Counted from the stretch's first letter, positions 4,047-37,013 are shown. The stretch: DNA of 64,000 nucleotides from an uncultured Victivallales bacterium (GCA_964576795.1 CAZNWT010000005.1:17696-81695); one strand, 5' to 3'. Notes: generated by a model not told the origin, from the sequence alone. Numbers and translations: made by a program.

Positions 4047-4055
4047 TCTGAGTAA

Positions 4056-5531: not shown

Positions 5532-5978
5532 GTGAGAACAACTTCTCGCGATGGGTTCACTCTTATTGAGGTGCTTATTGCTGTTGTCATCCTTTCGACG
5601 GGAATTGTTGTCGTGTTACAGGGATTGCAATCATCCCTGAGTGCCTTGGATGGTGCGGTGGAAAAGACGCGATCGGCAATGCTGTTGCAGGGGAAACTGG
5701 AAGAAGCCCAAGCGACTGCACTTGTTGGAGCAGACCCGTCAACGCTTGGCACGAGCGGTGGCTTTGCGGATCCTTTCGGTCGGTATCTCTGGCAACTGAA
5801 TTCTGTCTCTGCCCCGCTGTCGAGTATGGGTGGTGGGGTGGAAGGTGGCGGAGTGTTTTACGAAGTGAATGCCACGGTGTGGCGGGAGGGAAGTGTGCGC
5901 ACCTATTCGGCCGCAACACGCGTCTATGTGAGGCCTGAATTGGATGCTTCATTGGGGGATGTGGGAGGTTCTCTGTGA
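5532..5978 (+). CDS. Minor pseudopilin (GspH/I-like), GTG start inferred
   Basis: Prepilin-type N terminus …RDGFTLIEVLIAVVILS. The frame is open from 5328, but the leader length fits GTG 5532. Confidence 0.6.
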   Translation: MRTTSRDGFTLIEVLIAVVILSTGIVVVLQGLQSSLSALDGAVEKTRSAMLLQGKLEEAQATALVGADPSTLGTSGGFADPFGRYLWQLNSVSAPLSSMGGGVEGGGVFYEVNATVWREGSVRTYSAATRVYVRPELDASLGDVGGSL

Positions 5979-6565: not shown

Positions 6566-6567
6566 GA

Positions 6568-7650
6568 ATGATCATGGGTGCCGCAAATTTTAAGGAGTGT
6601 TGCCCAAATCGAAAGAGCGCCTTCCTCCTTCAGAAATCTCGCTCCGGGGGGAGTGTTCTTATCCTTGTGTTGTGGGTTCTTTTCTTTCTGGTGGCCCTGA
6701 CCGTGGCTGTTGGAACTCACGTTTCAGCCGCTATTACCGCCGCCGAACGGCTGTGGTCGCGTATGGAAGGCCGCTCTCTTGCAGAGGCTGGTGTTCAGCA
6801 GGCGTTCGCGATAGCCATGCAGCAGACCAATGAGTGGGATGGTATCGCCCGTGACGCATGGAATCGTGATCTCTCGGCTTTTACTGATATTTCCATCGGT
6901 GATGGGTTGTGTTCTATCCACTATTGCACGGTTGGGGCCGATGGAAGCGTCGTAACGAACGCCGGTATTGTGGGTGAGGATGGGAAACTCAACCTCAATA
7001 CGATTGTGAAGAGCGATGAGTCGAAACTGGCGTTTGGGGTGCTGATGACAACGGTCGGCGAGCTTGACGCCGAGCGTGCTGATAAGGTCGTGGCAGCAGT
7101 GTCAGATTGGATTGACGAAGACGATGAAATATTGACAGGGGGAGCGGAGAGTGGCTACTATGCGAGTCTGTCACCCTCGTATAAGTGCGCCAACGCTCCG
7201 ATGCGTTGTATGAGTGAATTTAGGCTTGTTAAAGGGGTGAGCAGAGAGCTGTATACACGGCTGGTTTCCTGTTTAACCGTGTATGGGTCTGAGCTAGTGA
7301 ATGTGAACTGTGCACCCGAACCGGTTATAGCGGCTCTGGCACAAGCGCATGCGGAAGGGACGACCGATCTTGATGCCTGTGCGTCATTGGCGGAAAAAAT
7401 AGGGAATTTTCGTAAGGCCGGAGGGGCGTTTCGCGAATCTGATGATATTGGGAGTCCTCCCGAGGATATTGGGCTTACAGGAGATGAGCGCGCCTTGTTT
7501 AGGGGAATGCAGTCGGGACTATATTGGAGTTCAACCGCTTTTCGTGGGGTTTCCGCAGGTGTTTTTGAGGGTGAGGGGCATTCTGGGATGTCGATTGAGT
7601 TTGTTTTGGACACGGTAAGTGGAAGTTTTGTCTACTGGCAAGAACGGTAA
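6568..7650 (+). CDS. gspK: GspK-like minor pseudopilin
   Basis: N terminus …SGGSVLILVLWVLFFLVAL is the GspK-type variant leader. Its ~360 aa size and position after three pseudopilins fit GspK. Confidence 0.55.
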   Translation: MIMGAANFKECCPNRKSAFLLQKSRSGGSVLILVLWVLFFLVALTVAVGTHVSAAITAAERLWSRMEGRSLAEAGVQQAFAIAMQQTNEWDGIARDAWNRDLSAFTDISIGDGLCSIHYCTVGADGSVVTNAGIVGEDGKLNLNTIVKSDESKLAFGVLMTTVGELDAERADKVVAAVSDWIDEDDEILTGGAESGYYASLSPSYKCANAPMRCMSEFRLVKGVSRELYTRLVSCLTVYGSELVNVNCAPEPVIAALAQAHAEGTTDLDACASLAEKIGNFRKAGGAFRESDDIGSPPEDIGLTGDERALFRGMQSGLYWSSTAFRGVSAGVFEGEGHSGMSIEFVLDTVSGSFVYWQER

Positions 7651-7689
7651 GTGGTGTTTGCATTTTCAGTATAGGATGAGGCGGAACTG

Positions 7690-9162
7690 ATGGGAAGCAA
7701 GGGTGCAAAGCTAAAACGTTCGGAGGGGGAGCCCCGCAAGATCGTCGTGCTTGTCGAGATTGGTAACGACTGGATCAAGCTGATCCAAGCCGAATCCAGT
7801 AAACGCGGCGTTACCCTTTCAAAGGTTCACCTTGAGCCGATTGACGTAGACACAAACGTTGTAGATAGCATTGCATCTGCGCTGAAAGCCAAGAAGTTCA
7901 GTATGACTGCGGTATTGACATGCCTTCCACGACAAGCGGTGAATCTGCGATTATTGGAGCTGCCGTCTACGGATAGTGCCGAAATAGCTGACATGGTCGA
8001 GCTTCAAATCGGTCGCCAAACGCCCTATTCCCGGGATGAGATTCTTTCCGACTACAAGCCGTTGGGACGCACACGACAAGGGACGTACACGCGAATTATG
8101 CTGGCAATCGTGCAGCGTAGCGTGGTGCGTGAACGTTTCTATGAAATCGAACAGGCCGGTCTGGATGTTGAACGCATGGGCGTCAGTTCTGAAGGGGTGT
8201 TGAATTGGTTTCTGTACCGAATGAAGGATAAGCCTCAGGATAAGGCTGTGGCCCTTATTGATGTGGATTCCTTTTATACGCAAGTGCTTGTGCTCCAGCA
8301 TGGACGCGTCATTTTCACCAAGAGCATTCTGGTAGGAGCCAAACAGTTGCTGGAGACGAGCGAAGAAAGTCGCGGCCAGCTTACCCAAGAGATTCAGAGT
8401 GCATTTCAGTCTTGCCGCAGTGAGCTTCGTGCTGGCGAGATTGAATCCATTGTTCTGTCGGGTTCAGGTGTTAATATTGAGGGGTTGGCTGAGGAGTTGA
8501 GCAGCGGGCTGTCGCTGCCTTGCGAAGGCCTTGATTCTTTGGCGGACGTCAAATTGGGCAAGGGGGCGGGAGATTTGGGTGATCCTCGTTATACAACAGC
8601 CTCTCTGACGGCCCTCATTGGCATGGCGTTGAATCCTGACGCCCTTGAATTTGATTTAATTCCAGATGTGGTTCGTATGCGCAGGACGCTGCTGCATAGC
8701 GCGTTATCGTCCACGATGTTGGCGGCTCTGGTTATGGCGGCGATGGTGTCCGCCTCGCTGTATGCGATGTTGTCCTATGCGTTCAAAACGCATCGTCTTA
8801 ACGCATTGCGTGAAGCTGTGGCCATAACGCAACCCGCTGTGGTGAAGGTTGAGCGTATGCTTGAGGTCATCCGCGAAACCAACGAACGCCAGGACTCGCG
8901 TTTTTCCATGGTGAATCTGTTACCAGCCATTCACGGTTGCGTCCCCAAAGATGTCTATTTTGAGTCCATTGATGTTGATGTAGAGAAAAAAAATGTCTCT
9001 TTGTCTGGAACAGCACCTGCCCGAAAGGATATTCGGGACCTGCTTAAAATGCTTGTGGATTCACCGTTTTTTGGCGATGTGAGTGAAGATGGACGCGTCA
9101 CCATGGATAAGGATGGACGCTTTAAGTTTCGGGCTGTTGCCAAGTTTGAGGAGGATTCCTGA
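7690..9162 (+). CDS. GspL-like / PilM–PilN-type inner-membrane assembly protein
   Basis: An actin-like cytoplasmic domain of ~330 aa (LSGSGVNIEGLAEEL) is followed by one TM (LAALVMAAMVSASLYAML) and a ~130-aa C-terminal periplasmic region. Confidence 0.55.
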   Translation: MGSKGAKLKRSEGEPRKIVVLVEIGNDWIKLIQAESSKRGVTLSKVHLEPIDVDTNVVDSIASALKAKKFSMTAVLTCLPRQAVNLRLLELPSTDSAEIADMVELQIGRQTPYSRDEILSDYKPLGRTRQGTYTRIMLAIVQRSVVRERFYEIEQAGLDVERMGVSSEGVLNWFLYRMKDKPQDKAVALIDVDSFYTQVLVLQHGRVIFTKSILVGAKQLLETSEESRGQLTQEIQSAFQSCRSELRAGEIESIVLSGSGVNIEGLAEELSSGLSLPCEGLDSLADVKLGKGAGDLGDPRYTTASLTALIGMALNPDALEFDLIPDVVRMRRTLLHSALSSTMLAALVMAAMVSASLYAMLSYAFKTHRLNALREAVAITQPAVVKVERMLEVIRETNERQDSRFSMVNLLPAIHGCVPKDVYFESIDVDVEKKNVSLSGTAPARKDIRDLLKMLVDSPFFGDVSEDGRVTMDKDGRFKFRAVAKFEEDS

Positions 9163-9716
9163 TGCTCGGTCGACTATCGCAACTTCCACCTCGGGAACAG
9201 GTCGGACTTGGCCTCGCCTGTGTTTTTGTGCTCTTGCTTATTTCGGATCAAGTTGTCGTGAAGCCTGTGTCTAAAATTTTAGATCGAATGGGTGTTGAAA
9301 TCGAGGTCGCTGAAAAGCAGGATGATGATAATCGCGAGATGCTTCAGTATGAGACCTCGGTTGAGGTGCGGTATGAACAGGTAAAGAACCTTATTGGGGT
9401 TTCTACGTCCGAGCAGGAGAGTGTTGAGCGTTTCAAGAGCAGTATTGATGAAATGGCGCTGCGCAATGCTATTAGCTTAAAGTCCATGCAGCATCTTACC
9501 CCTGAGCCAACTGACTTTTTGGTGACCTACTTCGTGGAAATTAGTGATTTTGAGGCCGAGACTTTAGCGTTGATCAATTTTCTGCAGGAAATTCAATCGG
9601 CACCGGGCATGCTGCGGGTCAAGAAGATGGCGTTGTCATCGCAGGATGAAACCACGATTGTGAAGGGCTCATTGGTCATCTCCAAAGTCATGACTCTCGC
9701 AGGGGAACAGGAGTAA
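9162..9716 (+). CDS. GspM/PilO-like bitopic membrane protein
   Basis: N-terminal TM (LGLACVFVLLLISDQVVV) followed by a coiled segment and a C-terminal α/β region. The start overlaps the upstream stop (ATGA). Confidence 0.4.
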   Translation: MLGRLSQLPPREQVGLGLACVFVLLLISDQVVVKPVSKILDRMGVEIEVAEKQDDDNREMLQYETSVEVRYEQVKNLIGVSTSEQESVERFKSSIDEMALRNAISLKSMQHLTPEPTDFLVTYFVEISDFEAETLALINFLQEIQSAPGMLRVKKMALSSQDETTIVKGSLVISKVMTLAGEQE

Positions 9717-9719: not shown

Positions 9720-11066
9720 ATGGTCGATGAACTGACTCAAGTTGAAGATAAAAATCTGTCCGAGCTTGATGAGCTACGCGAAGCGATTAGCACTGAACAA
9801 GGGCAGGGCCGTCGGGTCATGCTCTGGTTCATCACGGTATTCCTCTTTATTCTTTTGGTCGTGTTGGCCATGTTCCTTTTTTCTGGAATCTATATCCTGC
9901 GTAACTCCCAGCAAATGGTTAATGCTGTCGAGGATGTTGGTGATATGGCAACCGTCAACACCTTTCATCTCAGTAGTTTTACAAACAGACTTGCGCAGAT
10001 TGAGGGCGTCCAGATGCGCATCTCGGCAAAGCTCAATTCTGCAGACTTCGCCCGGGGGCAGGGATTTGATGCATTGGCATCCGAGCAACGCAAGCATGCA
10101 AAATGGATTGATGCGCGAGATGCTGCCGTTGAGCGCGACAAGCGTAACATCAATGATAGACTGCTTAAGCTTGGTGAACAGAATGCAGTAAACGCCCGTC
10201 AGCTTGCAGAAATTCAGAAGAAATTGGATCAGTTTGTTTCTGCAGGAGGCGTCGTTGTGGTGCCTGGCAATACAACATCGAAAATGTCCACTACGTCAGC
10301 TCCGGGAGAGGGTGATGCCGCCGAGTTGGTGGATTTTGGCATTATATCTCAGGAGTCCCTTGACGAGATGTTTACGGCGGCGTTGGCGTCTGTTGCTGAT
10401 CCCGTTCGTGAGCGGGATACCCCCGAGACCATATCTGTGGTGACATTTCCGAATGAGGATCGCTACGAAGGTGAATTTGTGAACGGGCTGATGCATGGCT
10501 GGGGATCGTACACCTACAAAAACGGCGATTGCTATGAAGGGGAATATGCGAATGATCTTAAGCAGGGGCGTGGGACGCTCACAACTGTTAATGGGGAGCG
10601 CTATGTTGGCGAGTTTGCCAACGACATGAAACAGGGAAAAGGCAGCCTCTCGTGTGCTGATGGGTTGCGATACATTGGCGATTTTCGAGACGACTTGATG
10701 ACGGGGAAAGGTGTGGCCTTTTACGCGAATGGAAACAAGTATGCCGGCGATTTTGTCAACGGGGTCCACCATGGGCGTGGTGCGCTTCGGTTTTTCAATG
10801 GTGACATCTACGATGGCGAATTTCGTAATGGCGTACGTACCGGGCGTGGTGCATATGCGTTTTCCGATGGTGGGCGTTACATGGGGGAATTTGTAAACGG
10901 CGTTCGTCATGGTATGGGCCGCTATATCTACCCCGATGGTGCCGAGTATATTGGCCCCTTCAAAAATGGCAAGAAGCATGGCGAAGGGATTCGTGTTTAC
11001 CCTAATGATGCCCGTCTTAAGGGACTATGGCGCGATGACGAATTCATCCGTGATCTTCAGAAATAA
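9720..11066 (+). CDS. Membrane-anchored protein with 8 tandem MORN repeats
   Basis: Single TM (VMLWFITVFLFILLVVLAMFLF), a coiled-coil region, then eight 23-aa repeats of the YxGEFxNGxxHGxGxxxxxxGxx MORN pattern at 10441-10995. Confidence 0.8.
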   Translation: MVDELTQVEDKNLSELDELREAISTEQGQGRRVMLWFITVFLFILLVVLAMFLFSGIYILRNSQQMVNAVEDVGDMATVNTFHLSSFTNRLAQIEGVQMRISAKLNSADFARGQGFDALASEQRKHAKWIDARDAAVERDKRNINDRLLKLGEQNAVNARQLAEIQKKLDQFVSAGGVVVVPGNTTSKMSTTSAPGEGDAAELVDFGIISQESLDEMFTAALASVADPVRERDTPETISVVTFPNEDRYEGEFVNGLMHGWGSYTYKNGDCYEGEYANDLKQGRGTLTTVNGERYVGEFANDMKQGKGSLSCADGLRYIGDFRDDLMTGKGVAFYANGNKYAGDFVNGVHHGRGALRFFNGDIYDGEFRNGVRTGRGAYAFSDGGRYMGEFVNGVRHGMGRYIYPDGAEYIGPFKNGKKHGEGIRVYPNDARLKGLWRDDEFIRDLQK

Positions 11067-11535: not shown

Positions 11536-12888
11536 ATGAAACGATTGACTGAGTATTTAGGGGTATTTCTGCTTGGGTTAGTATTGACCACTGCCGTAGC
11601 CCGCGCAGCAGTAAGTTTACCGTTTAGTGATGGTTTTGAGGATCAAGCCATCGGTGCCGCTCCATCGAATGTCTGGGTGATAGGAGCTGCTGATATCTAT
11701 GTTACGAATACCTCCCCGGCCATCGGCACTCAATCTCTCCAAATGGATGAGGGCGATGAGGACCCGGAGCTTACGCTTGCGGTAGGCGGAGGGGAGAGCA
11801 ACGTTTACTGGGTTGGCTCGGCAAAGGTCACGAAGGGTTCATCCGATCCCAGCATCGGCACCTCGGTGGCCGCCTTCTACATCACTACCAACAATGTGGT
11901 TCGGGCGAGTGATGGCGGAGACTGGACAAATTTGTATACACTTTCCAAGGATGCCGAAACTAACTGGATTAGCTATGCCGTGCATTTGGACTATACCAAC
12001 GGGATCGGGATGTGGGATCTCTACTTGGCTGAAACGAATAGTGCCGCAAAACTCACAAAGCGTAACTCGGCCCCGCTGGATTTTGCTGCCCAGGGAGCCG
12101 GTCTTGTAGAATTCGAGGTCACCGGAAATACGTCTCTTGATGCCGTCGCTATGAATATTGGATTCACGGCTGTGGGCGTTGCAACCTCGCCTGATGAACT
12201 TTCGGTAAGAACCGCCTCGCACAACTCAAACATATGGTATTCAGCGCGTGTGGGCGATGTTGGGGCGGCTAAATTTTTGGAGCCGGATGGCGATTACCTG
12301 AAGGAAGGGCTCGCTGTCGGCGATATCATCAAGTTCTACGATACCGATGCCTGGGAGACGTATAAGATTGAAGAACTCGGTGGTGTTCGCGTGTGGAGTG
12401 CGGTGAATTCAGCCGCTACTCCTATACTGTCTACTACTCAGAAGGTTGCAGGTGCTATGCCGATTACCAATGGTATTCCCTACTGGATTGTATATGCCAG
12501 TACAGCGACTGATGTCCCTCTGTTCTTCCCGTATGACCATGATCCGGCAGTGATAGCAGAAGAAACGCTTAGTATGGGCAGTTGCACGATTAATTCAAAC
12601 GGAACCGCCGCTGGTTGGACTACGCTCAGGTGGACATCGGCCAACACGCGGTCCCTGACCGCAGCCGGGTTGACGGATGCTGGTTTTGATCCAGATGTCC
12701 CTGACGGGATGGTGTGCATCTCAATCGAAAGTGGCACATGGAAATTTGTGCGCTCGGTGTGGGATAATGGCCAAGACCGCTGGGAGGTCCGTGGGGGCAA
12801 GGTTTCAACTGATGTATTTCAGCCAGACGAGGAAATCTGGTTATACAATCCAGGTGACGATGATATCACTTGGACAATCATCGATTAG
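11536..12888 (+). CDS. Secreted protein of unknown function
   Basis: Sec signal peptide MKRLTEYLGVFLLGLVLTTAVARA and a G/S/T/W/D-rich mature region. The RBS is gagagggag. Confidence 0.6.
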   Translation: MKRLTEYLGVFLLGLVLTTAVARAAVSLPFSDGFEDQAIGAAPSNVWVIGAADIYVTNTSPAIGTQSLQMDEGDEDPELTLAVGGGESNVYWVGSAKVTKGSSDPSIGTSVAAFYITTNNVVRASDGGDWTNLYTLSKDAETNWISYAVHLDYTNGIGMWDLYLAETNSAAKLTKRNSAPLDFAAQGAGLVEFEVTGNTSLDAVAMNIGFTAVGVATSPDELSVRTASHNSNIWYSARVGDVGAAKFLEPDGDYLKEGLAVGDIIKFYDTDAWETYKIEELGGVRVWSAVNSAATPILSTTQKVAGAMPITNGIPYWIVYASTATDVPLFFPYDHDPAVIAEETLSMGSCTINSNGTAAGWTTLRWTSANTRSLTAAGLTDAGFDPDVPDGMVCISIESGTWKFVRSVWDNGQDRWEVRGGKVSTDVFQPDEEIWLYNPGDDDITWTIID

Positions 12889-12922
12889 AAGCGTGTGAAT
12901 TCCAGCAAAATAAGGAGCAATG

Positions 12923-13916
12923 CATGAAGCCGATAGAAAAAATTAAGACGGTAGTGGGTGTCTTCGTTGCGAGCGCAGTGGTACTCGCAATTATGCTGAG
13001 CGCAGAGCGTTGTCAGGCGCAACCGAGCCCCGGTGTTGAGGGCGAGGATTGGGGGGTGCTTTCTGAAGAAGGGGCGGCAACCGTTTCCTATGGCGTTGAT
13101 GCGGTATCTGTTGATTTCGCCGCACGCAATACGTTAACACAACCGACTGCGAAGTACCGAACGATTTCCGTTTGTGTCGGTACCCAGAGCCCATTGTTCA
13201 CGGGAAATTATACGGATTCTGGGGTAACGGGCGTGGGATTCAGTCTGGCCGGAGTGGGCGAGGCGAAACCGGGCGTGATGGTTACGCTGGTAGGAAAAAA
13301 TGACCTGACATGGTATAATAGTTCAGTTGAGCTGAGCGAAGTGGATGGCGAGTGGCAGCCGAACAACATTTCATTTGAATATGAAGATGGATGGTATCGC
13401 GATGCTTTCAACACGGAAGCCAATTGGAATGCAGCCCTAACGGATGTGAAGTCTATTAGCGTGTATATTATGCAAAGTGGAAACCCTGCGCAGACCGGCT
13501 ATTTAAAGAGCTTCAGACTCCTGAACGCTCAGCAGACCGCCACTACCGCGGGGACACTCACGGCCCGTGTTCTTGCTTGGTTTGGGGTTGAGAATGAGCG
13601 CGATGCCGACAGGGGGCTTGATTCTGACGGCGATGGCATTTCAGACTACCTTGAGATTACAATGACGGAGACGGATCCGGGCGATGCGAATTCTGTTCTG
13701 AAAGTCGATGTGCAGAGGTTAGCGGTGGGGCTGCAATTGAAATGGGTTGTTGCTACCGGCAGATTGTATGATGTGTACCGGTGTGAGAATCTGGGCTCCG
13801 ATTTTACAGTTATCGCGAGTCGCATCGAAGCACTCTCGACTGGTCTTCTTGAGTATAACGATGTGACGGCAACTGGCGAAGGCCCCTATTTCTATCGAGT
13901 TAAACAAGTACAGTAG
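12923..13916 (+). CDS. Secreted protein with a calcium-binding-like DxDxDG motif
   Basis: RBS aaggag then ATG 12923. The signal peptide is MKPIEKIKTVVGVFVASAVVLAIMLSA, and the motif is DSDGDGISDYLE. Confidence 0.55.
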
Positions 13917-13938
13917 AGGACAGAAAGGAATCGCAAAA

Positions 13939-14742
13939 ATGAATATCCATTTCAAATACGTTTTACTTTTGACGGTGGCAGTATCCATGTTTACAGCGGT
14001 GGGCGAGGCTGCGAGCATTGTCGAGGATTGGACGGCCGGTGGTATCCGAGATTGGGATATTGCGAACGCGTTAGGAGGGGCTGCTTATGGTGGGCTTACG
14101 GAAGGTTCTCTTGGTGTTGGTCACGCTAACGCACTGATCATTTCGGGAGGAGCATCGTTAGTCGGACGTAGTGATGCAATCTCAGCCGATGATGCTGGGC
14201 TTTCAACCGACTTCATCGGAAACTACGCCACTGGTGTAGGTCTTGAAGGCGGCACCATCGGTGCTATTGAAGGGCTCTCTTTTGATTTCTATGTGGATTC
14301 GGGACCGGCTTCGGGTGGCCCCAGCGGTATCACCCTGTTTTTTGATACATCGTATGACGTTGGGTCGCCTGGTGGTGGCACTTGGTTTTTGGACATCACC
14401 GGTGTTGCGAACGGATGGGGTTCTTATGGCTCAAATATCGACACGTTAAGCCTCGCTTCTGTCTCCTACGGTGACTGGTATTCTGGTGAGTTTAGCACAG
14501 TTGGCGATTGGAGCGGTTCACTGGCGTTAGTCACGGATATTGGTATTGAGCTTGATTATCTTAGCTCGATAGCTGGACAGATTTACGGTGTCGACAATTT
14601 CACGCTAAGCGAGGGTAACTTCGCGGTTCCAGAGCCTGAGACCTACCTTGTGCTCGGAATGGCGCTGCTGTCTGTTGCCGTTGTCTTCCGCAAGCGGATC
14701 AGCGAGTCTTTGGCTGAAGCTCGTGCAATGTTGATGGTTTAG
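13939..14742 (+). CDS. PEP-CTERM-anchored secreted protein (exosortase substrate)
   Basis: N-terminal signal peptide. The C terminus VPEPETYLVLGMALLSVAVVFRKR matches the PEP-CTERM motif + TM + basic tail. Confidence 0.7.
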   Translation: MNIHFKYVLLLTVAVSMFTAVGEAASIVEDWTAGGIRDWDIANALGGAAYGGLTEGSLGVGHANALIISGGASLVGRSDAISADDAGLSTDFIGNYATGVGLEGGTIGAIEGLSFDFYVDSGPASGGPSGITLFFDTSYDVGSPGGGTWFLDITGVANGWGSYGSNIDTLSLASVSYGDWYSGEFSTVGDWSGSLALVTDIGIELDYLSSIAGQIYGVDNFTLSEGNFAVPEPETYLVLGMALLSVAVVFRKRISESLAEARAMLMV

Positions 14743-14770
14743 TTACAAATATTGCTCTTAATAATTCTGA

Positions 14771-14803
14771 AAAGCCCTACCACATTGTGGTGGGGCTTTT
14801 TCA
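14771..14803 (+). terminator. Rho-independent terminator
   Basis: aaagccctaccaca-ttg-tggtggggcttt followed by ttc. Confidence 0.6.
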
Positions 14804-14841
14804 TGTCGTGGAGGTGGCCCGCTCTTGGGTTGCTTATGTCC

Positions 14842-14917
14842 GGGGCGAGGGCGCCCTAGCTCCATTGTTGCAGGATGAGGGTAGATTGCTGTAATGGAGG
14901 TGGGACGCCCTCGTCCC
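14842..14917. repeat. ~77-bp dispersed element with inverted termini, copy B
   Basis: ggggcgagggcgccctagctccattgttgcagga…taatggaggtgggacgccctcgtcccg. It sits in direct orientation relative to copy A. Confidence 0.7.
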
Positions 14918-14945
14918 GCGAGCGCAGGGAGGGGGGGGAGGGGTT

Positions 14946-15653
14946 CTATTGGTTTGCAGGCTCTACTTTCTCAACAGGTTCATCATCTTTTGAGATTGTG
15001 ATGATGTGTGAGTGATTGATGGTGGCGCGGCCTCGGAGTTGATTGAGGTAGGTATCGAGCGCGGCACGCTCGCGCTCAGCGATAACGCGTTTTTTGAGAA
15101 CATCGTGAGGCACATCTTGGGCATTGATGGCTGTGGCGTAGGCATTCACTTCCTCGTCGGTTACAAGAGGTGAATCTCTCTCGCTACGGATGCGATTGAG
15201 AAGCTTCTGAACGCGGAGCCCTGATACAAGTGTAGTATCAAGTTTGGTTTCATTTTCTTTGACATATTCATCCCATGTCATGCCCTCGGGTAATTTGGCT
15301 CTTATACGATCCAAAGCCTCTTGTTTTTCAGCTTCTGTGACTTCTATTTCCAATCTTTCTGCTTCTGATGCAAGAAGCGACTCTATTACAAAGCCATTGA
15401 TTATCGTCTTCAGCTTGCGATGTTTAATGACCCGCACCCGATCTGATGGAATATTCTGTGGAGGTTGCCCGAGTTCTTTGTTCATCCGGGTTATTGCCTC
15501 TCCCATAAGTAGTTTACGTCCATTTACTTCAACCAGCACCTCATTGGATCTGGCTTCTGCTTCTGCGGCCTTTCTCTCCTCCTGCTGTTTGTTTTGTTTA
15601 GCTGAACATCCTGAAAGTAGGATTGCGGCGAGTAAGAAAGTATATATTTTCAT
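14946..15653 (-). CDS. Periplasmic chaperone-like lipoprotein (SurA N-terminal domain-like)
   Basis: Lipobox LLSGC. The α-helical SurA_N-like region is rich in E/K/R, and no PPIase domain follows. Confidence 0.4.
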   Translation of the reverse strand: MKIYTFLLAAILLSGCSAKQNKQQEERKAAEAEARSNEVLVEVNGRKLLMGEAITRMNKELGQPPQNIPSDRVRVIKHRKLKTIINGFVIESLLASEAERLEIEVTEAEKQEALDRIRAKLPEGMTWDEYVKENETKLDTTLVSGLRVQKLLNRIRSERDSPLVTDEEVNAYATAINAQDVPHDVLKKRVIAERERAALDTYLNQLRGRATINHSHIITISKDDEPVEKVEPANQ

Positions 15654-16958: not shown

Positions 16959-18329
16959 TTATCCGAGAGGCAACAGCGAAACGGTGATGCCGAAATAGAT
17001 TAGCAGTGCGGCGATATCGTTGGTAATGGTGACAAAGGGGCCGGATGCAACGGCGGGGTCAACGTTTGCCTTGTTCAATATGATGGGAACCAGTGCGCCG
17101 AAAACGGCGGCAAATGACATCGAACAGAATAGTGCCAGTGCAACAACGGATGCGACAGGAAAAGCTGAGATCGTGGGGTCGGGATCTCGAATAACCCAGA
17201 TGTATGCCCAGCCTCCGATGCTAATCCCGCATATTGTACCCATAATAGCGCCCACAATAATCTCCCGAAGGAGTAGTTTTCTAATGCTCTTACCTTCCAT
17301 GCCACGGAGCGCGATGGTCCGCACAACAAGCGTTGATGCTTGAATGCCGGTATTGCCACCCATTGCGAGTACGGCCGGGACAAAGGCTCCAAGCATGATT
17401 ACTTTCACTATATGGGCGTGAAACTCCTGCAAAATCAGGCTTGTTATCAGACCGCCGAACAGTGTTACCATGAGCCATGGGAGCCGCGCGATACAACTGC
17501 GTATGGCCGAATTTGTTTCCAACTCGCTATCATCTGACCCCGCAAGATGAAAGATGTCTTCTGATGCCTCCTCTTCGATGACGTCAATGACATCGTCAAC
17601 GGTGACTCGACCGACGACGTGGCCATCATCATCAATAACGGGGATTGAGGAGATGTCGTATTGGCTCAGGTGGTGCGCAACATCCTCCTGATCGTCATTG
17701 ACGTTGGCTGCCACAAACTCGGTATGACAGAGTTCACTCAGGGGCCGGTTGCGATTCTTTTCCCTCAGCAGTTCCCATATATCTATATATCCGGTGAGCT
17801 TTCCCTGTTCATTGACAATATAGGCGTATACGAAGGGTTCTCCTTCTTCCAGATAGGCAATGGCGGCGATAGCTTCTGCCACCGTTTGATTGCTGCGCAT
17901 CGTGACGATTTCGGGGGTCATGATGCCGCCGGCAGTATCTTCGTCGTAGGCAAGCAGGCGCCGAACCTCTTCCGAATCCTCGTCATCCATCAGTTTAAGC
18001 ACTGCGGAGGAGCGCTGTTGGGAAAGTTCGCCAATGACGTCTGCGGCGTCATCGGGATCCATTTCTTCCACAATTTCAGAGAGTTCGGCGTTGGAAAGAG
18101 AGTCGATGACCTCAGACTCAGCGGCGTCATCAAGTTCTGACAGAACGTCTGGTTTTACATCATCCTTGAGAAGTGTAAACAGGTGATCCTGCGCATCTTT
18201 TGGGGCTGAATCGATGAGATCAGCGATGTCAGCGTGATGCCAGGACGCGAGCTCTGTTACAATACAATCCCATGCCTCTTCGTGGATGAGGTCAAGTATC
18301 CGGTCAATATCGGGTTGTAGCTTTGGCAT
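16959..18329 (-). CDS. mgtE: Magnesium transporter MgtE
   Basis: MgtE_N domain, two CBS domains, and a C-terminal five-TM MgtE domain (GGNTGIQASTLVVR). Confidence 0.9.
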   Translation of the reverse strand: MPKLQPDIDRILDLIHEEAWDCIVTELASWHHADIADLIDSAPKDAQDHLFTLLKDDVKPDVLSELDDAAESEVIDSLSNAELSEIVEEMDPDDAADVIGELSQQRSSAVLKLMDDEDSEEVRRLLAYDEDTAGGIMTPEIVTMRSNQTVAEAIAAIAYLEEGEPFVYAYIVNEQGKLTGYIDIWELLREKNRNRPLSELCHTEFVAANVNDDQEDVAHHLSQYDISSIPVIDDDGHVVGRVTVDDVIDVIEEEASEDIFHLAGSDDSELETNSAIRSCIARLPWLMVTLFGGLITSLILQEFHAHIVKVIMLGAFVPAVLAMGGNTGIQASTLVVRTIALRGMEGKSIRKLLLREIIVGAIMGTICGISIGGWAYIWVIRDPDPTISAFPVASVVALALFCSMSFAAVFGALVPIILNKANVDPAVASGPFVTITNDIAALLIYFGITVSLLPLG

Positions 18330-30351: not shown

Positions 30352-30710
30352 GGAGGGCGCGGCTTGTTGCTGCTGGTGAGGTCATTGTTCCTCGCCTTCT
30401 GATTGCGACCCGAATGCTGGATCGAATGCGAGGTCTGTTGGGACGTGCGAGTCTTCCAGAGGGAACCGGAATGTTTCTGAAACCGTGTGGTTCTATCCAC
30501 ACGGTGGGAATGCATTTTTCACTGGATGTTATTTTTCTGGATCGTCAGCAACGAGTTGTTCGTACGGCACAGAGGTTACACCCAAATTGGTTTGCGCTTG
30601 GCGGGCACAGCGCACATGCGGTTGTGGAGTGTGCGACCGGGTGGTTGGATGTTTCATCACTTACGCGAGGGGATCGCCTAGAGATCCTCTTCGATACTGT
30701 CGGTGCGTAA
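30348..30710 (+). CDS. DUF192 (COG1430) protein
   Basis: RMRGLLGR…GMFLKPCGSIHTVGMHFSLDVIFLD matches the DUF192 pattern. Confidence 0.6.
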   Translation: MRRARLVAAGEVIVPRLLIATRMLDRMRGLLGRASLPEGTGMFLKPCGSIHTVGMHFSLDVIFLDRQQRVVRTAQRLHPNWFALGGHSAHAVVECATGWLDVSSLTRGDRLEILFDTVGA

Positions 30711-32042
30711 CGGCTTTGCGGATAGAATTTCGTTATGTGGTATCGTTTTGAAGATGCCGGGATGTGTTTCCAGTTTTACGTTTTTCTGTGCGTCGACCTC
30801 AATCAGAAGCCCCGTGTAGACTTCTGTGCTGGTTTTGATTTCGTAGTTCGGAATGAAACGGCGTTTTAATTTGAAATGACGCGTTAGAATTTGGTCTCGT
30901 ACGATATCAATGCCTGCCTTACTTTCGTAGTAACCGACCTTTGTGAGGGTGATCACATGGCCCCCCGGGGGCAGCAGGTCGATTGATAACTCCTGTGAGA
31001 TTCGATCCGTAGCGTTGGTTCCTGTTTCTGTGCTTCCCACGCTCTTGCCATCGAGTACTACATCAACCTCGGCGGGTTCCGTCGTGATTCTGAGTTCTCC
31101 CGCATTTCGCTGGAGGCGAAACTCTTCAACAATATGCTGGTCGCGGCCAACGTCTATGTTGCGCAGTAGTATGTCGTGTGCTGCCATTTCTGCCCGGACA
31201 CGATAGGTGTTTGGAAGCAGAGTTTCCAGTTTGACAGGGGATTTTCCGCGGAATTGATTATCAACATAGATACGGGCACCAACAGGGATAGATACAATCG
31301 TGAGATCTGATGGAATGGGCTTGAGGATTGCCGTGATGGTTTGCGTTTCGCCGGCGGCGAGTTTGAACGATTCGTTGTAGAGTTCGTAACCCTCGAGAGT
31401 AAGTTCAAGTCTGAGGTCTCCAGACGGGATGCGATCAACAGAGCACGGCGTTGTTCCTCGCGCGATTCCGCTAAGGGTTACAGTGGCGCCAGTGGGTTCC
31501 GAGTCGAGCTTTAGCGTGGCTGAGTCGGAGGTTAGCGTTATGTCGTGTTTTGTGGGGCAACGTCCCTCAATGGTGAGTTCAATCTCTTTGGATATGTAAC
31601 CGGGTTTGTGTAGGCGGGCTCGGTAGTGCCCCAGTGGGAGATCCGCAATGAGAAGCGGGGTTGCGCCTCGATGTGCTCCGTCGATCTCCACCTCAGCACC
31701 GACGGGTATAGAGTGAATGAGAATAAGCCCACGTGTGGCGCTCAGGCGAAATTCGCGTGATAGCTTCTCCATCGAATCCAAGGTGACCGTTTCGCGAATG
31801 GGGTCATAATCGCGTTTCTCGACGAGCATCAGATGTTTTCCAGGGGCGAGGTCTGTCAGGGTTAAGGGGGTGACGCCGCGTGGGGTTTCGTCAATGGTTA
31901 CTGTTGCCCCGAGGGGATCGGATTCGATATGAAGCTGCGCGGGTGCCGCTAGAGCGGCGGACCGTGCGAACGTTGCGAGGAGTATTCCACAGATGAGACG
32001 CGTAAGGGTGCTGCGGGTGCATTTGTATCGGAGTGCTGTCAT
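30678..32042 (-). CDS. PEGA-domain repeat protein (secreted or envelope)
   Basis: Signal peptide. Roughly five consecutive PEGA-type domains, each about 70 aa with a PxGAxV… core (e.g. SDPLGATVTIDETPRGVTP, SIPVGAEVEIDGAHRGATP, SIPVGARIYVDNQFRGKSP). Confidence 0.7.
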   Translation of the reverse strand: MTALRYKCTRSTLTRLICGILLATFARSAALAAPAQLHIESDPLGATVTIDETPRGVTPLTLTDLAPGKHLMLVEKRDYDPIRETVTLDSMEKLSREFRLSATRGLILIHSIPVGAEVEIDGAHRGATPLLIADLPLGHYRARLHKPGYISKEIELTIEGRCPTKHDITLTSDSATLKLDSEPTGATVTLSGIARGTTPCSVDRIPSGDLRLELTLEGYELYNESFKLAAGETQTITAILKPIPSDLTIVSIPVGARIYVDNQFRGKSPVKLETLLPNTYRVRAEMAAHDILLRNIDVGRDQHIVEEFRLQRNAGELRITTEPAEVDVVLDGKSVGSTETGTNATDRISQELSIDLLPPGGHVITLTKVGYYESKAGIDIVRDQILTRHFKLKRRFIPNYEIKTSTEVYTGLLIEVDAQKNVKLETHPGIFKTIPHNEILSAKPLRTDSIEEDL

Positions 32043-33331
32043 TTCAGAGATTCCAGTTGTGCGTCTACTTCGATGAGCTTGTTACGTGCTTCTGCATGTC
32101 TTGAATCCTCTCGGTTAGGAATCAATTCCAGCAGAGTTCGTAGCTCTTCAGCGGCGGTTTCCCACTCGCGGAGGCGAATAGCGCGTTCGGCTTGGAAGTT
32201 CTGTTCTTCGTATCGTTGTATAAGGTCTTCCTCGCACTGACGTTGGGATACGAGAATATCGCCATAAAACGGCGGCTTTTCTTCGACGGTTTCGAGATAC
32301 CATGCGGCTTCCTTGAAACTCTTGATTGCAGCGGCGAGGTTGCCGAGAGCAATAAGGCGCTCTGCGTATAACTTCTTTCCGAGAAGGTAGGTGTCATTTG
32401 CCATTGTGATCAGCTTCTCCGTGGAAAACTGAATGGCCCAAAATCCAAGTTCAACGTGTCCGAAATCCTCAAGCTTATCTCGGACCATGGTGAATATATC
32501 GGGTTCGATGCAGTTGGTGACACGCACCTGATGGGTGTCTTTTCCAATGGTGATTGATATTGTGGATTGCTCAAGCGCATTTGGATTGACGCCGGGGTAG
32601 GTCTCTTTGAGATCAAGAAATCCAGATTGACTTAATGTTTCGGCGAGGCCTTCAAGGAGATCGGGTTGAACCTGTTTAGATTCGCGAACGGTACGGTTGT
32701 TCTCCAGATCGTCTATGTCGATGGAGAGAATTCCTTCAGGAGTGATGGTTAGGCGGTAGTAAAAAATATTGCCGTTTGAGGCTTCGATTTTTTCGTAATG
32801 CACGGCCAGCGTCATATCGACTTCTACCACAGATATGGCAATTGGTGCTGGGGTGGGTGCTGGGCGATTCAGAACTTTCAACATATAGGCAGTTGCAGCG
32901 ACTGCAATGACGATGCAGAGAGCGGTGAGGAGTGTTCCAATGCCGAATTGTTTAGAGGGTTTCTGGGGCGTCGCGTTTCCGGAGAGTCCAAGGTTGACCG
33001 GATGATCTGAGGGTGTACTTGGAATGGTGATACGTCCATCGTTAACGACGCATAGGACGGAGTCTCCAATGTGAATGTGATTGCCACTGTAGATGGGAGC
33101 CTCGACGATGGGTTTATTGTTGAGGAGTGTCTCGTTGGCACTTCCCAAGTCTGCAACCCAGAGCCCGTCATCTTTAAAGAAAATGCGGCAGTGGTGGCGG
33201 GAGAGCAATGGGTCAACTAGGACGATATCGTTCTTTGATGAACGCCCCACGCGCGCACCCTCGGGGGGGATTGTGAACTGCTTCCCCGCATCCTCGCCAT
33301 GTTCTACTCGAATGTGCTCAATACTTTTCAT
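32039..33331 (-). CDS. FHA-domain membrane protein with a TPR-like C terminus
   Basis: N-terminal FHA (GARVGRSSKNDIVLVDPLLSRHHCRIF…NGT-like), one TM (IGTLLTALCIVIAVAATAYML), and a C-terminal helical region. Confidence 0.65.
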   Translation of the reverse strand: MKSIEHIRVEHGEDAGKQFTIPPEGARVGRSSKNDIVLVDPLLSRHHCRIFFKDDGLWVADLGSANETLLNNKPIVEAPIYSGNHIHIGDSVLCVVNDGRITIPSTPSDHPVNLGLSGNATPQKPSKQFGIGTLLTALCIVIAVAATAYMLKVLNRPAPTPAPIAISVVEVDMTLAVHYEKIEASNGNIFYYRLTITPEGILSIDIDDLENNRTVRESKQVQPDLLEGLAETLSQSGFLDLKETYPGVNPNALEQSTISITIGKDTHQVRVTNCIEPDIFTMVRDKLEDFGHVELGFWAIQFSTEKLITMANDTYLLGKKLYAERLIALGNLAAAIKSFKEAAWYLETVEEKPPFYGDILVSQRQCEEDLIQRYEEQNFQAERAIRLREWETAAEELRTLLELIPNREDSRHAEARNKLIEVDAQLESLK

Positions 33332-33415
33332 AGTACCTCTCTCGAAACTGTAGCAGATGGTGTATAGAGCGACAAGCCTTCTGCGACGGGATTAGGGTTA
33401 TGGAGCTTCGTATAA

Positions 33416-34984
33416 TTAAGCGTCGGGTTGTCGGTAGCGAGAACGCTCGATTCCAAGGTGTTTGATTCGATAGTTGAGAATGCGGGGGGTTGTCTGCAGG
33501 TGACGTGCTGCTGCTGCGGCGCTGCCACGATATTTTTTGAGTGCGTCTACCAGTAACTCACGTTCATAGGCGTTGACCATGTCTTTTAGGCTGGCCCCTT
33601 CGGTCGGAATCAGTCCTGTTTTGGTTTGCTCTTCGGTCTGTAGAGAGGGGGGCAAACTGTAGGCGTGAATGACATTATCCGCGCTGGTTAGCACGGCGCG
33701 TTCAATACAGTTTTCAAGCTCCCTGACATTGCCTGGCCAATAGTAGGCCATCATCATATTGATAGCGGCAGAGGAGATGCGCTTTATGTTCTTGCCGTAG
33801 GCTGCATTGTATTTCTGGACGAAATGATCCGCCAACAGAATGATGTCGGATCGCCGATCCCGTAGGCGGGGAAGCATGATTGGAAAAACGTTCAGTCGGT
33901 AGTAGAGGTCCTCGCGGAATCGGTTTTCACTGATTGCTTTTTCTAGATCAATGCTGGTTGCTGTAATGACGCGAACATTGACGTTATGGGTTGTCGTTCC
34001 GCCCACGCGCTCAAAGCAACGTTCTTGAAGCACGCGCAAGAGTCGCACTTGGATCGCGGTGCTGATGTCTCCAATCTCATCGAGAAAGAGTGTGCCTCCG
34101 TTGGCGAGTTCAAAGCGTCCTTGTCGCTGTTGCATGGCTCCAGTGAAAGCCCCTTTCTCATGTCCAAACAGTTCGCTTTCAATAAGATTTTTGGGAAGTG
34201 CTGCGCAGTTCACGCAGACAAAAGCATTGTTGCGCCGTGGACTGCTGAAGTGGATAGCGCGAGCCACAAGTTCCTTGCCGGTTCCCGATGCCCCCCGAAT
34301 CAGAACGGTTGCGGTGCTGTCGGCCACCTGCGCAATTTGGTCGTAGATCGCACGCATGCCGTGGCAGTTTCCGATGATGTTGGATGGACGGTAGCGGTCT
34401 CCCAGTTCTTGCTTTAGTTTGCGGTTCTCTGCCAGAAGGCTGTCGTGCTTTTCCATTTGCTGGCGAATGCGAGAGACGGCTTCGGCGAGCAAGTCGGCAA
34501 CAAGTTTCAGAAAGTTCAGATCCTGCTGTAGTTCTTCTTCGGTGGCGAGGGGGCGGTCAATGCTGATTGTGCCCACGACTGCGTTTTGATGTGAGATGGG
34601 GACACAGATAAAGGCGAGCTTGTTGGCTTTTCGGGTCTGAGTTCTGTCCAAAAAGTTTGGATTTGTTGATACATCAGGAATAAGAGCGGGTTGTCCCGTT
34701 AGTGCCACCGTCCCGGTAATTCCCTCTCCCAGTCTGTAGGAGCCCAGTTGGCGCTCTTTGGCAGAGAGACCGCGAGAGGCTTCAATATCAAAAATGTCTG
34801 AGTCCAAACGGCGAAGTGTAAGTGTTGCCCGCGCGAGCCCCATTTGGGTATCCAGAATATCCAGAACTTTATCGAGTAGATCTGCAATGCCATGTTGGTG
34901 TGCCATGGCTTGTGAGATGCGATATAGGGTTTCAAGCTCTTGTTCAGCTCGACTTCTGTTTCGTGTTGGTGATTCTATATTCAT
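33416..34984 (-). CDS. σ54-dependent transcriptional activator (GAF–AAA+–HTH; NifA/FhlA-like)
   Basis: GAF domain. The σ54-interaction module carries GASGTGKE, ESELFGHEKGAFTGA and RVITATS, and a C-terminal Fis-type HTH follows. Confidence 0.85.
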   Translation of the reverse strand: MNIESPTRNRSRAEQELETLYRISQAMAHQHGIADLLDKVLDILDTQMGLARATLTLRRLDSDIFDIEASRGLSAKERQLGSYRLGEGITGTVALTGQPALIPDVSTNPNFLDRTQTRKANKLAFICVPISHQNAVVGTISIDRPLATEEELQQDLNFLKLVADLLAEAVSRIRQQMEKHDSLLAENRKLKQELGDRYRPSNIIGNCHGMRAIYDQIAQVADSTATVLIRGASGTGKELVARAIHFSSPRRNNAFVCVNCAALPKNLIESELFGHEKGAFTGAMQQRQGRFELANGGTLFLDEIGDISTAIQVRLLRVLQERCFERVGGTTTHNVNVRVITATSIDLEKAISENRFREDLYYRLNVFPIMLPRLRDRRSDIILLADHFVQKYNAAYGKNIKRISSAAINMMMAYYWPGNVRELENCIERAVLTSADNVIHAYSLPPSLQTEEQTKTGLIPTEGASLKDMVNAYERELLVDALKKYRGSAAAAARHLQTTPRILNYRIKHLGIERSRYRQPDA

Positions 34985-35419
34985 ATATATGCTCCTCTAA
35001 GGAAAACTGGGTTCTTCCTCGTTTTCACGCTTAGTTGCCACTCCTAGTTGACGCGTTTAGTCGCAATTGACTTACCGATAATGAAGCGGTTCGGCTAAGT
35101 GTACCCGACTAGGAGTATGGACTAAGAGTATCGGCTAAGAACTTTTTACATTAAGTATTACATATTTGTATCAAATATAAAAGTTGTCAACATAAATGTA
35201 TTGTTTGTTTATGGTGATTTGGTTTGTGTTGTTCGAGATGACATTCATAAGGCGTTTATTATAAAATAGATGCGACTAATGTTTGCGTCCGGTTTGAGAT
35301 GTTGACACGTCATTTGCGATATAGCATCGCAGTTCGAACGATTGGGTTATTTCAAGTTGGTCAAAGCGTGAGATTAGCGTGTTTGTATACGCTGGCAAGA
35401 AAAGGGGAGGGTGAAGAGT

Positions 35420-36169
35420 CATGAGAGTGATGAAATGCATGTTGATGGGGACGATTATTACGGGAGCACTTGTGTGTGGTAGTGCAGTGTGGGCGTAGGA
35501 TGCTGCGACTACAGATGCTATTGCTGCAGCCAAAGATGAGGTGACGCTGAACTTAGATATTGTATGGACGTGTATAGCGGCATTTCTCGTGTTTTTTATG
35601 CAGGCAGGGTTTGCCATGGTTGAGACGGGATTTACCCGTGCAAAGAATGCAATCAACATCATGATGAAGAACCTGATGGACTTCTCCATTGGCACCCTTG
35701 CCTTTTATCTGGTTAGTTTTGGGCTCATGTTTGATGTCACAAAGGGGGTTATTTTTTGGCTTTTCGGGGGGTGGACCCTGCTGGCAGCGGTTGGGAATGG
35801 ACGTTTTTGATTTTTCAGACGGTGTTTGCTGGCACGGCCGCAACCATCGTGTCTGATGCGATGGCTGAGCGTACAAAGTTCAGTGGCTATGGAAGTAAGA
35901 TTTACAAGATGTCTGTGACCAATGCCTTGGGGTGTGGCCAGCAGATGGGATATCACGAGTCCTATCGAGGTGTGGATGTTGAGGTCAACCTTCTCAAGAA
36001 ACTGCGCCTCGAGATTGCGGTGAATGCGGATTATGTTAAAGAGACGGTGGATGCCATTATAGAGGGTGCTCGCACGGGGGAGATTGGCGATGGAAAGATC
36101 TTTGTCTTGGACCTGCTGGAGTGCATCCGAATCAGAACCGAGGAAAAAGGGAAGGCGGTGGTTGGGTAG
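35420..36169 (+). pseudogene. Decayed ammonium transporter (amt) fused by deletion to a P-II (glnK/glnB) C-terminal remnant
   Basis: Signal peptide MRVMKCMLMGTIITGALVCGSAVWA then TAG. The Amt N-terminal core continues in another frame (LDIVWTCIAAFLVFFMQAGFAMVETGFTRAKNAINIMMKN). After a third frameshift comes …AERTKFSGY, joined directly to P-II residues ~20-112 ([22 protein letters not shown]…[21 protein letters not shown]). Confidence 0.7.
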
Positions 36170-36316
36170 GCACGTTAACCTAAAAAGAGCAGTTGAAATG
36201 CTCTTGCTGGGGTCAAGCCGTATGTTGAGTAGAGTGCTGAGAATGAATAAATGTTAAGAAAATAATTGTTGCGCCTTTCAGAGTGGGCGCGACAGCAAAA
36301 TAAGGTAGGAATCAAA

Positions 36317-36643
36317 ATGAACAGAACATTGAACGTTGTGGGAATGGTGGCGGTGATGTTGGTGGCTGGATCTGGGCTTTACGCTACAGAAGCCAGTCTT
36401 TCTTTGGACTTCGCAAGTGCGTATGTGTTACGTGGGGTCATATTCAATGATGGGGCTGTAACCCAGCTTGGTCTTGAGGTCAGTGATTTAGGCGGATTGA
36501 CCGTGGGTGCCTGGGGTAATGTTGATATTGACGACTACGACGGTGCGCTTGAGGGAGGTCAGATGAGTGAGATCGACGTGTATGCTTCGTACGATCTTCC
36601 TTTGGAAGACCCCGTGGCTGTTAGTGTTGGCATTGACTTTTAA
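36317..36643 (+). CDS. Short secreted Gcw_chp (TIGR02001)-like protein
   Basis: Signal peptide MNRTLNVVGMVAVMLVAGSGLYA, then SLDFASAYVLRGVIFNDGAVTQ…TVGAWGNVD…EIDVYASYD, ending in a C-terminal Phe. At 108 aa it is much shorter than typical family members. Confidence 0.4.
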   Translation: MNRTLNVVGMVAVMLVAGSGLYATEASLSLDFASAYVLRGVIFNDGAVTQLGLEVSDLGGLTVGAWGNVDIDDYDGALEGGQMSEIDVYASYDLPLEDPVAVSVGIDF

Positions 36644-36677
36644 AATCTTTAGCCGAAAGCTACAGAAATGAGTGAAT

Positions 36678-36718
36678 GCTCACTGCGGATTTCGCTGGGT
36701 TCCGCAGTGAGCTTTTTG
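36678..36718 (+). terminator. Rho-independent terminator
   Basis: gctcactgcgga-(loop)-tccgcagtgagc followed by ttttt. Confidence 0.75.
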
Positions 36719-36937
36719 GAGTGCAAATATTGCCTTTTCAAAAAAGATTAAAAAAATGGTAATAATTGTTGACAGAGACTGATGGAATGATAGTCTTGCG
36801 CTCGTTTTTTTTTGGGATATTAGGGCAGTAAACAGGCGGAATAACGTATCTGAGACAACAGGAATTTGAACCTTAGCCAAATGGTTAAGGCCGTATTTCT
36901 GTTGTTTTTCTGTCATGATGGGGAGTTTGGGATCGTA

Positions 36938-37013
36938 GCCCATGTAGCTCAGTCGGCAGAGCACGTCCTTGGTAAGGACGAGGTCAGCGGTTCGATCCCG
37001 CTCATGGGCTCCA
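36938..37013 (+). tRNA. tRNA-Thr (anticodon GGT)
   Basis: The 76-nt cloverleaf folds by hand with acceptor gcccatg/catgggc, anticodon loop ttGGTaa, T-loop ttcgatc and a 3' CCA. Confidence 0.85.

Follow-up and report, generated by a model that had tools for sequence, protein, structure and literature searches.

A very probable remnant of a sigma-54-dependent amt-glnK-porin operon, decayed through multiple lesions beside an intact GAF-type activator gene

The 64-kb stretch of DNA analyzed here, referred to below as the window, very likely contains the non-functional remnant of a sigma-54-dependent amt-glnK-porin operon, located divergent from an intact gene encoding a GAF-type activator. On sequence grounds, the locus is a genuine cluster of pseudogenes with multiple hits, derived from a familiar type of operon. 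Such decay is ordinary; the one mildly unusual point is that sister lineages show decay here too, repeatedly and independently. Ancestrally, the activator would have bound to upstream sites and driven a -24/-12 promoter, from which an ammonium channel (~450 aa), GlnK (113 aa), and an outer-membrane TorF-type porin (~250 aa) would have been expressed. Selection on this operon would then have lapsed in the window lineage, with at least five lesions accumulating: a G to A change at the -24 GG promoter element, a stop codon following the Amt signal peptide (probably CAG to TAG), a 1-nt slip in a run of G, a ~0.97-kb deletion reaching from amt codon ~158 to glnK codon ~21 and in frame by chance, and the removal of 57% of the porin gene from its 3' side. 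Additional missense changes would have struck invariant Amt glycines, and the activator would have survived, probably via its control of other nitrogen-assimilation genes. The features of the locus, with positions counted along the window, are as follows.

33416..34984, minus strand: intact enhancer-binding protein of 522 aa with GAF, sigma-54 AAA+ (GAFTGA), and HTH_8 domains (Pfam, NCBIfam)
35160..35172 and 35186..35199, plus strand: blocks ACATATTTGTATC and GTCAACATAAATGT, conserved with the L093 intergenic region (alignment)
35303..35317, plus strand: sigma-54 promoter remnant TGACACGTCATTTGC, with the -24 GG changed to GA; the orthologous L093 element is TGGCACGCCATCTGC
35421..35498, plus strand: Amt start ATG, 25-residue signal peptide MRVMKCMLMGTIITGALVCGSAVWA, and in-frame TAG at 35496-35498 (three-frame translation)
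35499..35771, plus strand: N-terminal part of the Amt core, in the same frame as the signal peptide (Pfam Amt positions 1-69 of 399)
35766..35771, plus strand: G6 homopolymer, the most likely frameshift site (1-nt loss from G7; frame comparison with homologues)
35771..35890, plus strand: Amt core continued in a second frame (Amt profile positions 80-115 of 399)
35888..35893, plus strand: deletion junction, TAT (35888-35890) joined to GGA (35891-35893), amt codon ~158 to glnK codon 21/22, in frame (size from the gene coordinates of the intact syntenic contig)
35891..36169, plus strand: P-II (GlnK-type) residues 22-113 and native TAG stop at 36167-36169 (Pfam, NCBIfam, alignments)
36317..36643, plus strand: TorF/Gcw_chp porin remnant, N-terminal 108 of ~235-252 residues, 3' part deleted (Pfam, NCBIfam)
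36675..36720, plus strand: hairpin resembling an intrinsic terminator (GCTCACTGCGGA ... TCCGCAGTGAGC, then TTTTT), immediately 3' of the porin stump, with tRNA-Thr and tuf further on
36938-37013: tRNA-Thr, between the hairpin and tuf

The damage to amt begins shortly after its start. Specifically, a ribosome binding site (GGGGAGG, 35404-35410) precedes the ATG at 35421 and, as the original prediction had it, the signal peptide ends in a TAG; the corresponding codon in the nearest Amt orthologue (L215/P0109) is CAG, encoding Gln, the probable ancestral state. Beyond the TAG, the frame reads DIVWTCIAAFLVFFMQAGFAMVETGFTRAKN...GLMFDVTKG up to ~35770, and this N-terminal part of the core shows 78% amino acid identity to L083 amt1 and 82% nucleotide identity to L215. 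The prediction had placed the Amt core in two other frames and had suspected indels at 35495, ~35520, and ~35800. Of this, one change of frame stands: the first part of the core shares the frame of the signal peptide and only the second part lies in one other frame, the TAG near 35495 is an in-frame nonsense codon and no frameshift, and no further indel was found at ~35520 or ~35800. The single frame change falls between ~35745 and ~35775, most likely within the G6 run, the ancestral form of which would have been G7.

What survives of Amt is unmistakable and far from complete. The match is beyond chance (E-value 3e-14, Pfam search), and, relative to a full-length protein of ~400-450 aa covering the whole PF00909 profile, only positions 1-69 and 80-115 of 399 are represented, in two pieces scoring 66.8 and 26.9 bits against a TIGR00836 cut-off of 343.3 (NCBIfam). 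All Amt sequence beyond ...AERTKFSGY, ~295 codons including the pore-lining twin-histidine region and the C-terminal half, is deleted, and comparison with the Amt proteins of relatives found no C-terminal homology remaining downstream of the junction. The retained part has itself drifted, deviating at 5-6 of the 75 columns conserved at ≥95% among 52 full-length homologues, 41 of which show no deviation at the same columns. Three invariant glycines are replaced (G to S and G to D within 35499..35771, G to D within 35771..35890), and the nearest orthologue retains them. Since pN/pS between the retained core and this orthologue is still 0.07, the decay of amt-glnK appears recent relative to the split from relatives, in keeping with the recent loss originally proposed; synonymous sites are saturated, such that dN/dS against relatives does not isolate the pseudogene phase.

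The second half of the remnant derives from glnK. The in-frame passage from ...AERTKFSGY to the C-terminal part of a P-II protein, T-loop included, had been recognized correctly, as had the existence of a large amt-glnK deletion; its end points shift from amt codon ~165 and glnK codon 20 to ~158 (own numbering) and ~21, giving a loss of ~0.97 kb, and are themselves estimates. The P-II part starts at residue 21/22 because GSKIY belongs to P-II itself, the closest intact P-II proteins reading SLYGSEVYKLSVT or SLYGSKVYRLSVT around it. The match is again beyond chance (E-value 6.8e-16, Pfam search), covers Pfam positions ~10-102 of 102 and NCBIfam positions 25-110 of 112, and is 84-86% identical to intact 113-aa P-II proteins. 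Measured against a complete domain of ~112 aa, the remnant is without beta1-alpha1 (residues 1-21), and its NCBIfam scores are 79.9 against a cut-off of 202 and 78 against a cut-off of 181. Both the T-loop (YRG) and the nucleotide-binding loop (TGxxGDGKIF) are present, and only 1 of 53 conserved columns deviates, which is within the range of intact homologues. Had the P-II part drifted for as long as Amt, ~4 deviations would be expected where 1 is seen (Poisson p ~0.08); the greater decay of the Amt part thus hints that amt died first and that the deletion into glnK came later.

The porin gene downstream fared no better; its truncation, the promoter change described below, and the replaced Amt glycines all go beyond the damage listed in the original prediction. 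Its remnant is 60% identical to residues 4-94 of the L086 porin (235 aa) and matches profile positions 11-88 of 230, with a TIGR02001 score of 27.7 bits against a cut-off of 47.15, in comparison to the ~230-250 aa and above-cut-off score of a full-length TorF/Gcw_chp protein. The missing 3' 57% corresponds to ~0.43 kb, leaving ~43% of the length, and no porin homology was found 3' of the remnant's stop, the sequence there holding only the terminator hairpin and tRNA-Thr.

Upstream, the promoter has been hit as well. The window element reads TGACAC where the orthologous intact promoter reads TGGCAC; it sits 118 bp 5' of the amt ATG with the sigma-54 spacing kept, and TGACACGTCATTTGC thereby departs from the canonical TGGCAC-N5-TTGC, with GG at -24 and GC at -12. 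Consistent with an ancestral promoter at this position is the finding that, in L083, L007, L013, L002, and L215, relatives with intact loci among them, TGGCAC-N5-(T/A/G/C)TGC lies ~115-150 bp upstream of amt. No better sigma-54 match was found near the locus, and a canonical search of the window (one mismatch, trailing W required) returned two sites only, both elsewhere and at chance level; a metagenome scan with a degenerate promoter pattern yielded 120 chance matches, none of them related. Further upstream, the conserved blocks at 35160-35199 are putative sites at which the GAF activator would bind, and the activator gene on the other strand may use them too. In L093, the corresponding pair, ACATATTTGTATC and GTCAACA(T/A)(A/T)AATGT, is located at about 2325-2372, and the pair lies ~100-140 bp upstream of the sigma-54 promoter.

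The ancestral state of the locus is preserved in a close relative. A P-II protein 82% identical to the remnant (P0133) is encoded on a 75-kb JGI contig (3300072015), the RpoB of which is 95.1% identical to that of the window. This contig carries, in order, the activator (522 aa, minus strand), Amt (453 aa), P-II (113 aa), a Gcw_chp porin (252 aa), and EF-Tu (402 aa), and continues with SecE, NusG, L11, L1, L10, L7/L12, and RpoB (1255 aa); it thus has the gene order of the window and matching gene lengths, with the locus intact. The distance from the activator start to the tuf start is 3556 bp on this contig and 2100 bp in the window, a shortfall of 1456 bp that is made up of 972 bp of amt-glnK, 430 bp of porin, and intergenic differences. 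Compared with the intact orthologues at this position, on this contig and, for the amt-glnK pair, in L093, the amt, glnK, and porin genes of the window bear a nonsense codon, a frameshift, and two deletions, the disabling lesions of pseudogenes. Additionally, a short ENA contig places the C-terminus of an Amt of the same subtype as the window remnant beside an identical P-II. Relatives with 91% RpoB identity were considered for dating the loss and set aside, as they carry isocitrate dehydrogenase, not amt, upstream of tuf.

Sister lineages show that damage to this locus is not confined to the window. Firstly, in L093 (GCA_018645275.1; RpoB 94.3%), amt (448 aa) and glnK (113 aa) are intact, and the porin gene (4356-4825) has suffered an internal out-of-frame deletion that joins the signal peptide (MKSILSVLLA) to residue ~141, an event independent of the 3' truncation in the window. 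Secondly, L215 (GCA_046766455.1), which has the closest Amt N-terminus, with its frame intact, CAG in place of TAG, and an intact TGGCAC promoter, carries a deletion of its own (1040-1130) from amt codon ~125 to glnK codon ~38, out of frame and with a 7-nt microhomology, GGCCAGC, at the junction. Two JGI samples, L214 (10432-10583) and L216 (1330-1576), share the L215 deletion and have lost a further ~230 bp from glnK codon ~66 to just upstream of the porin gene, so that the nested deletions capture stepwise erosion across samples. The deletions in the window and in L215 are best read as independent, both because the window keeps segments that are absent in L215 and because a relative closer to the window is intact. 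Judging from these sequences, the amt-glnK-porin operon is being eroded repeatedly in the clade.

The locus appears to have experienced gene replacement as well. Comparison of L093 2304-3932 with window positions 34985-35890 reveals that the promoter and signal-peptide region are orthologous (LVCTSAAWADDA in L093, LVCGSAVWA*DA in the window), and that the mature Amt of L093 is of a different subtype, with 45% identity to the window remnant and 87% to the L086 Amt. This suggests that the amt body was replaced by recombination in one lineage, and it follows that the ancestral content could have exceeded one amt-glnK pair.

A different account of these recurrent losses is that they were adaptive and not neutral, co-inactivation of AmtB, GlnK, and the porin having been selected in the clade. 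The independent amt-to-glnK deletion of L215, with its different junction, the further deletion in L214 and L216, the separate disruption of the porin in L093, and the existence of several unrelated Amt/P-II deletion chimeras in the protein database all lend themselves to such an account. Repeated loss is, however, equally expected under relaxed selection, as in ammonium-rich habitats, one close relative keeps all of the genes intact, and a chimeric database query enriches for chimeras, leading us to consider adaptive loss unlikely. Similarly doubtful is a more specific proposal, namely that joint deletion of the amt 3' and glnK 5' parts is a favoured, selected loss route, recurrent in sister Kiritimatiellia-like lineages and in unrelated bacteria, with the activator kept for the remaining nitrogen regulon. 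If true, the advantage of inactivating amt and glnK jointly would be that neither a channel without regulation nor a P-II protein without its partner is left behind. The database chimeras in question are eight unrelated proteins of 269-434 aa (P0002, P0069, P0076, P0079, P0089, P0095, P0108, P0113), each combining an N-terminal part of Amt with a partial or whole P-II domain through junctions that differ between proteins; they look like the products of other amt-to-glnK deletions or like internally deleted natural fusions and, having been retrieved with a chimeric query, their count is no measure of frequency.

Decay of the operon has left the activator gene unharmed. The claim that it is intact at 33416-34984 is confirmed by a protein of 522 aa with all domains present, including PF00158 at 3.9e-72, GAFTGA at residue 278, and HTH_8, as is characteristic of bacterial enhancer-binding proteins. 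Its score of 509.3 bits lies below the TIGR01817 NifA equivalog cut-off of 528.85, and the surroundings of the activator showed no nif genes, either here or in L001, L046, L083, L093, and L214; its neighbors in relatives are amt-glnK, glnN (GS-III), gltB, and others. Relative to the L093 orthologue (87.7% amino acid identity), pN is 0.076 and pS is 0.75, indicating that the activator is under purifying selection, and lineage-specific changes number 12 in the window lineage versus 5, a small and non-significant excess. Homologues with 47-56% identity lie directly upstream of amt-glnK(-glnN) in L083, L002, L007, and L013, where sigma-54 promoters precede the amt-glnK(-glnN) genes. The best genome match, found by a contig scan in L001 and 64% identical, is divergent from the gene for the glutamate synthase large subunit, and no amt is present near the closest activator loci, L001 and L046. 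Moreover, the activator remains intact (520 aa) beside the dead amt-glnK of L214. Taken together, the activator is likeliest a nitrogen-assimilation regulator with several targets, and the description of it as orphaned is for that reason unsupported.

On its far side, the activator adjoins genes encoding a PEGA-repeat protein (454 aa) and an FHA-domain membrane protein (430 aa), at 30678-33331 on the minus strand. The neighbors on this side differ in every relative examined (L093, L214, and the 75-kb JGI contig), placing the activator/amt module at a rearrangement-prone boundary, and a metagenome scan with the neighboring FHA protein found no relative.

The original prediction had allowed that the lesions might be assembly errors, the true genome carrying an intact amt followed by a complete glnK. 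The frameshift does fall in a homopolymer, a typical error site, and the source appears from the record names to consist of metagenome assemblies. Several lines of evidence nevertheless make an artefact highly improbable. The Logan assembly of SRR8526173 is 100% identical over 35318-36984; a 102-kb ENA contig shows 1 mismatch in 20.4 kb, outside of the decayed locus; and a 69-kb JGI contig encodes the same 137-aa chimeric ORF, bringing to three the further assemblies that share it. In addition, ~1.4 kb of coding sequence (~1 kb and ~0.43 kb) is missing relative to the intact relative, which is beyond indel error, and the remnant shows missense decay and a promoter mutation. Because different assemblers agree, because the loss is of kilobase scale, and because missense decay is present, assembly error seems largely excluded. 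The single difference from the ENA contig is located at position 34135 (T versus A), inside the activator gene, and explains why an exact look-up of the activator protein returned no match.

Equally improbable is the explanation that a functional new protein is made from the chimeric ORF of 137 aa (35756-36169) or from a shorter internal start, with an Amt transmembrane segment in front of a P-II core devoid of beta1-alpha1, for example as a membrane-tethered signalling module. The appeal of this explanation lies in the in-frame junction, in a P-II part that keeps the T-loop and the ATP-binding GDGKIF loop with 1 of 53 conserved columns deviating, and in its annotation by gene callers as carrying both Pfam domains. 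The missing residues, 1-21 of P-II, however, supply beta1 and alpha1 to the double beta-alpha-beta core, and the trimer depends on them. The ORF, moreover, starts with a TTG inside frameshifted Amt sequence, no ribosome binding site was seen by eye upstream of this TTG or of the internal ATG at 35909-35911, and the promoter carries GA at -24. The deletion in the sister lineage is different and out of frame, with most of P-II lost thereafter, which fits neutral erosion. No functional product is expected from the chimeric ORF, and that automated annotation reports it as a protein with Amt and P-II domains serves as a practical warning.

The weakest alternative, recoding, in which the TAG is read through (pyrrolysine or a suppressor) and the G run supports programmed frameshifting or phase variation, can point to a TAG and a G6 run inside an otherwise well-conserved frame, and is dismissed, since TAG is a normal stop codon here (of 62 long ORFs in the window, 21 end with it, among them tuf, nusG, and, at the homologous position, the P-II remnant), no suppressor tRNA is found in the window, and even with readthrough ~295 Amt codons, with most transmembrane helices and the pore histidines, would be deleted.

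Decay of the amt-glnK-porin operon stands out against an otherwise well-preserved region. The RpoB of the window is 74-77% identical to those of uncultured PVC bacteria labelled Kiritimatiellia, Lentisphaerae, or Verrucomicrobia, among which it places the organism, a Kiritimatiellia-like bacterium. The window is ~90% coding, with its other 62 kb dense with intact genes: the Pfam-scanned ORFs of 1-25 kb and the precomputed Pfam genes of 25.7-46.2 kb look full-length outside of the locus; among them are genes for type II secretion and pili, SecA, MgtE, RecO, IspD, and the rif/str ribosomal regions. Given this integrity and coding density, the suggestion of general genome reduction or a host-associated lifestyle finds no support. 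No second amt or P-II sequence is present within the 64-kb window; one relative, however, carries two amt-glnK pairs in tandem, and loss of ammonium uptake and P-II signalling from the organism as a whole, as first proposed, is not supported by these 64 kb. A literature search on amtB/glnK pseudogenes or Kiritimatiellota nitrogen regulation returned nothing useful. Elsewhere in the window, four consecutive long ORFs at 11536-15653 (450, 348, 267, and 235 aa) went unmatched in Pfam at E<=1e-5 and follow a type II secretion/pilus-like cluster (1191-9716) and a gene for a MORN-repeat protein (9720-11066). GC skew is positive in all but one of 64 1-kb windows (~+0.1 to +0.3; -0.006 at 17001-18000) and stays so across the minus-strand genes at 30678-34984, which suggests that the window lies wholly on the leading strand of one replichore with strong strand asymmetry.

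What the locus records is how one lineage of uncultured PVC-group bacteria lost an ammonium-uptake module made up of a channel, its P-II regulator, and a linked porin, while a close relative kept the ancestral arrangement. No new mechanism is revealed by it; the clade could, nonetheless, be used as a natural experiment, on a small scale, to learn under which conditions amt-glnK can be dispensed with.

Comparison with known systems places each part of the locus in a familiar context. The conserved pairing of the Amt channel with the P-II regulator GlnK is the glnK-amtB operon (PF00909 and PF00543), which the locus resembles in having amt followed by glnK with a short spacer, in the YRG T-loop and GDGKIF loop of its P-II part, and in its intact close relatives (453 and 113 aa; 448 and 113 aa). 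It differs in that only Amt positions ~1-115 of 399 and P-II residues 22-113 survive, with a nonsense codon, a frameshift, and a deletion, and, unlike in E. coli glnK-amtB, the gene order here is amt-glnK. The activator shares with NifA/NtrC-class enhancer-binding proteins the arrangement of GAF, Sigma54_activat (GAFTGA), AAA_lid, and HTH_8 domains and a position divergent from, or upstream of, a sigma-54 promoter; it is NifA-like in architecture but falls below the equivalog cut-off and adjoins no nif genes, and, without a receiver domain, it is not NtrC.

The porin remnant resembles TorF/Gcw_chp porins (PF09694, TIGR02001) in its N-terminal 108 residues, which match the family, and in the porins that follow amt-glnK in relatives, and differs in its ~43% of full length and its score below the family cut-off; this gene linkage suggests a putative role for the TorF/Gcw_chp family in ammonium uptake. 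Natural Amt-GlnK fusions consist of a full-length Amt with a complete C-terminal P-II domain. The chimeric ORF likewise holds Amt and P-II sequence in one reading frame, whereas two thirds of Amt and the first 21 P-II residues are missing from it and the upstream Amt is out of frame. Finally, multi-hit pseudogenes produced through deletional bias are a general phenomenon in bacterial genomes, and the locus shares their features: a nonsense mutation, a homopolymer frameshift, and deletions are all present, the sister lineage shows GGCCAGC microhomology, the scored point changes are G to A, and the nonsense change is probably C to T. Nothing about the locus is unusual by this comparison; only one operon has decayed, and the remainder of the 64 kb is intact.
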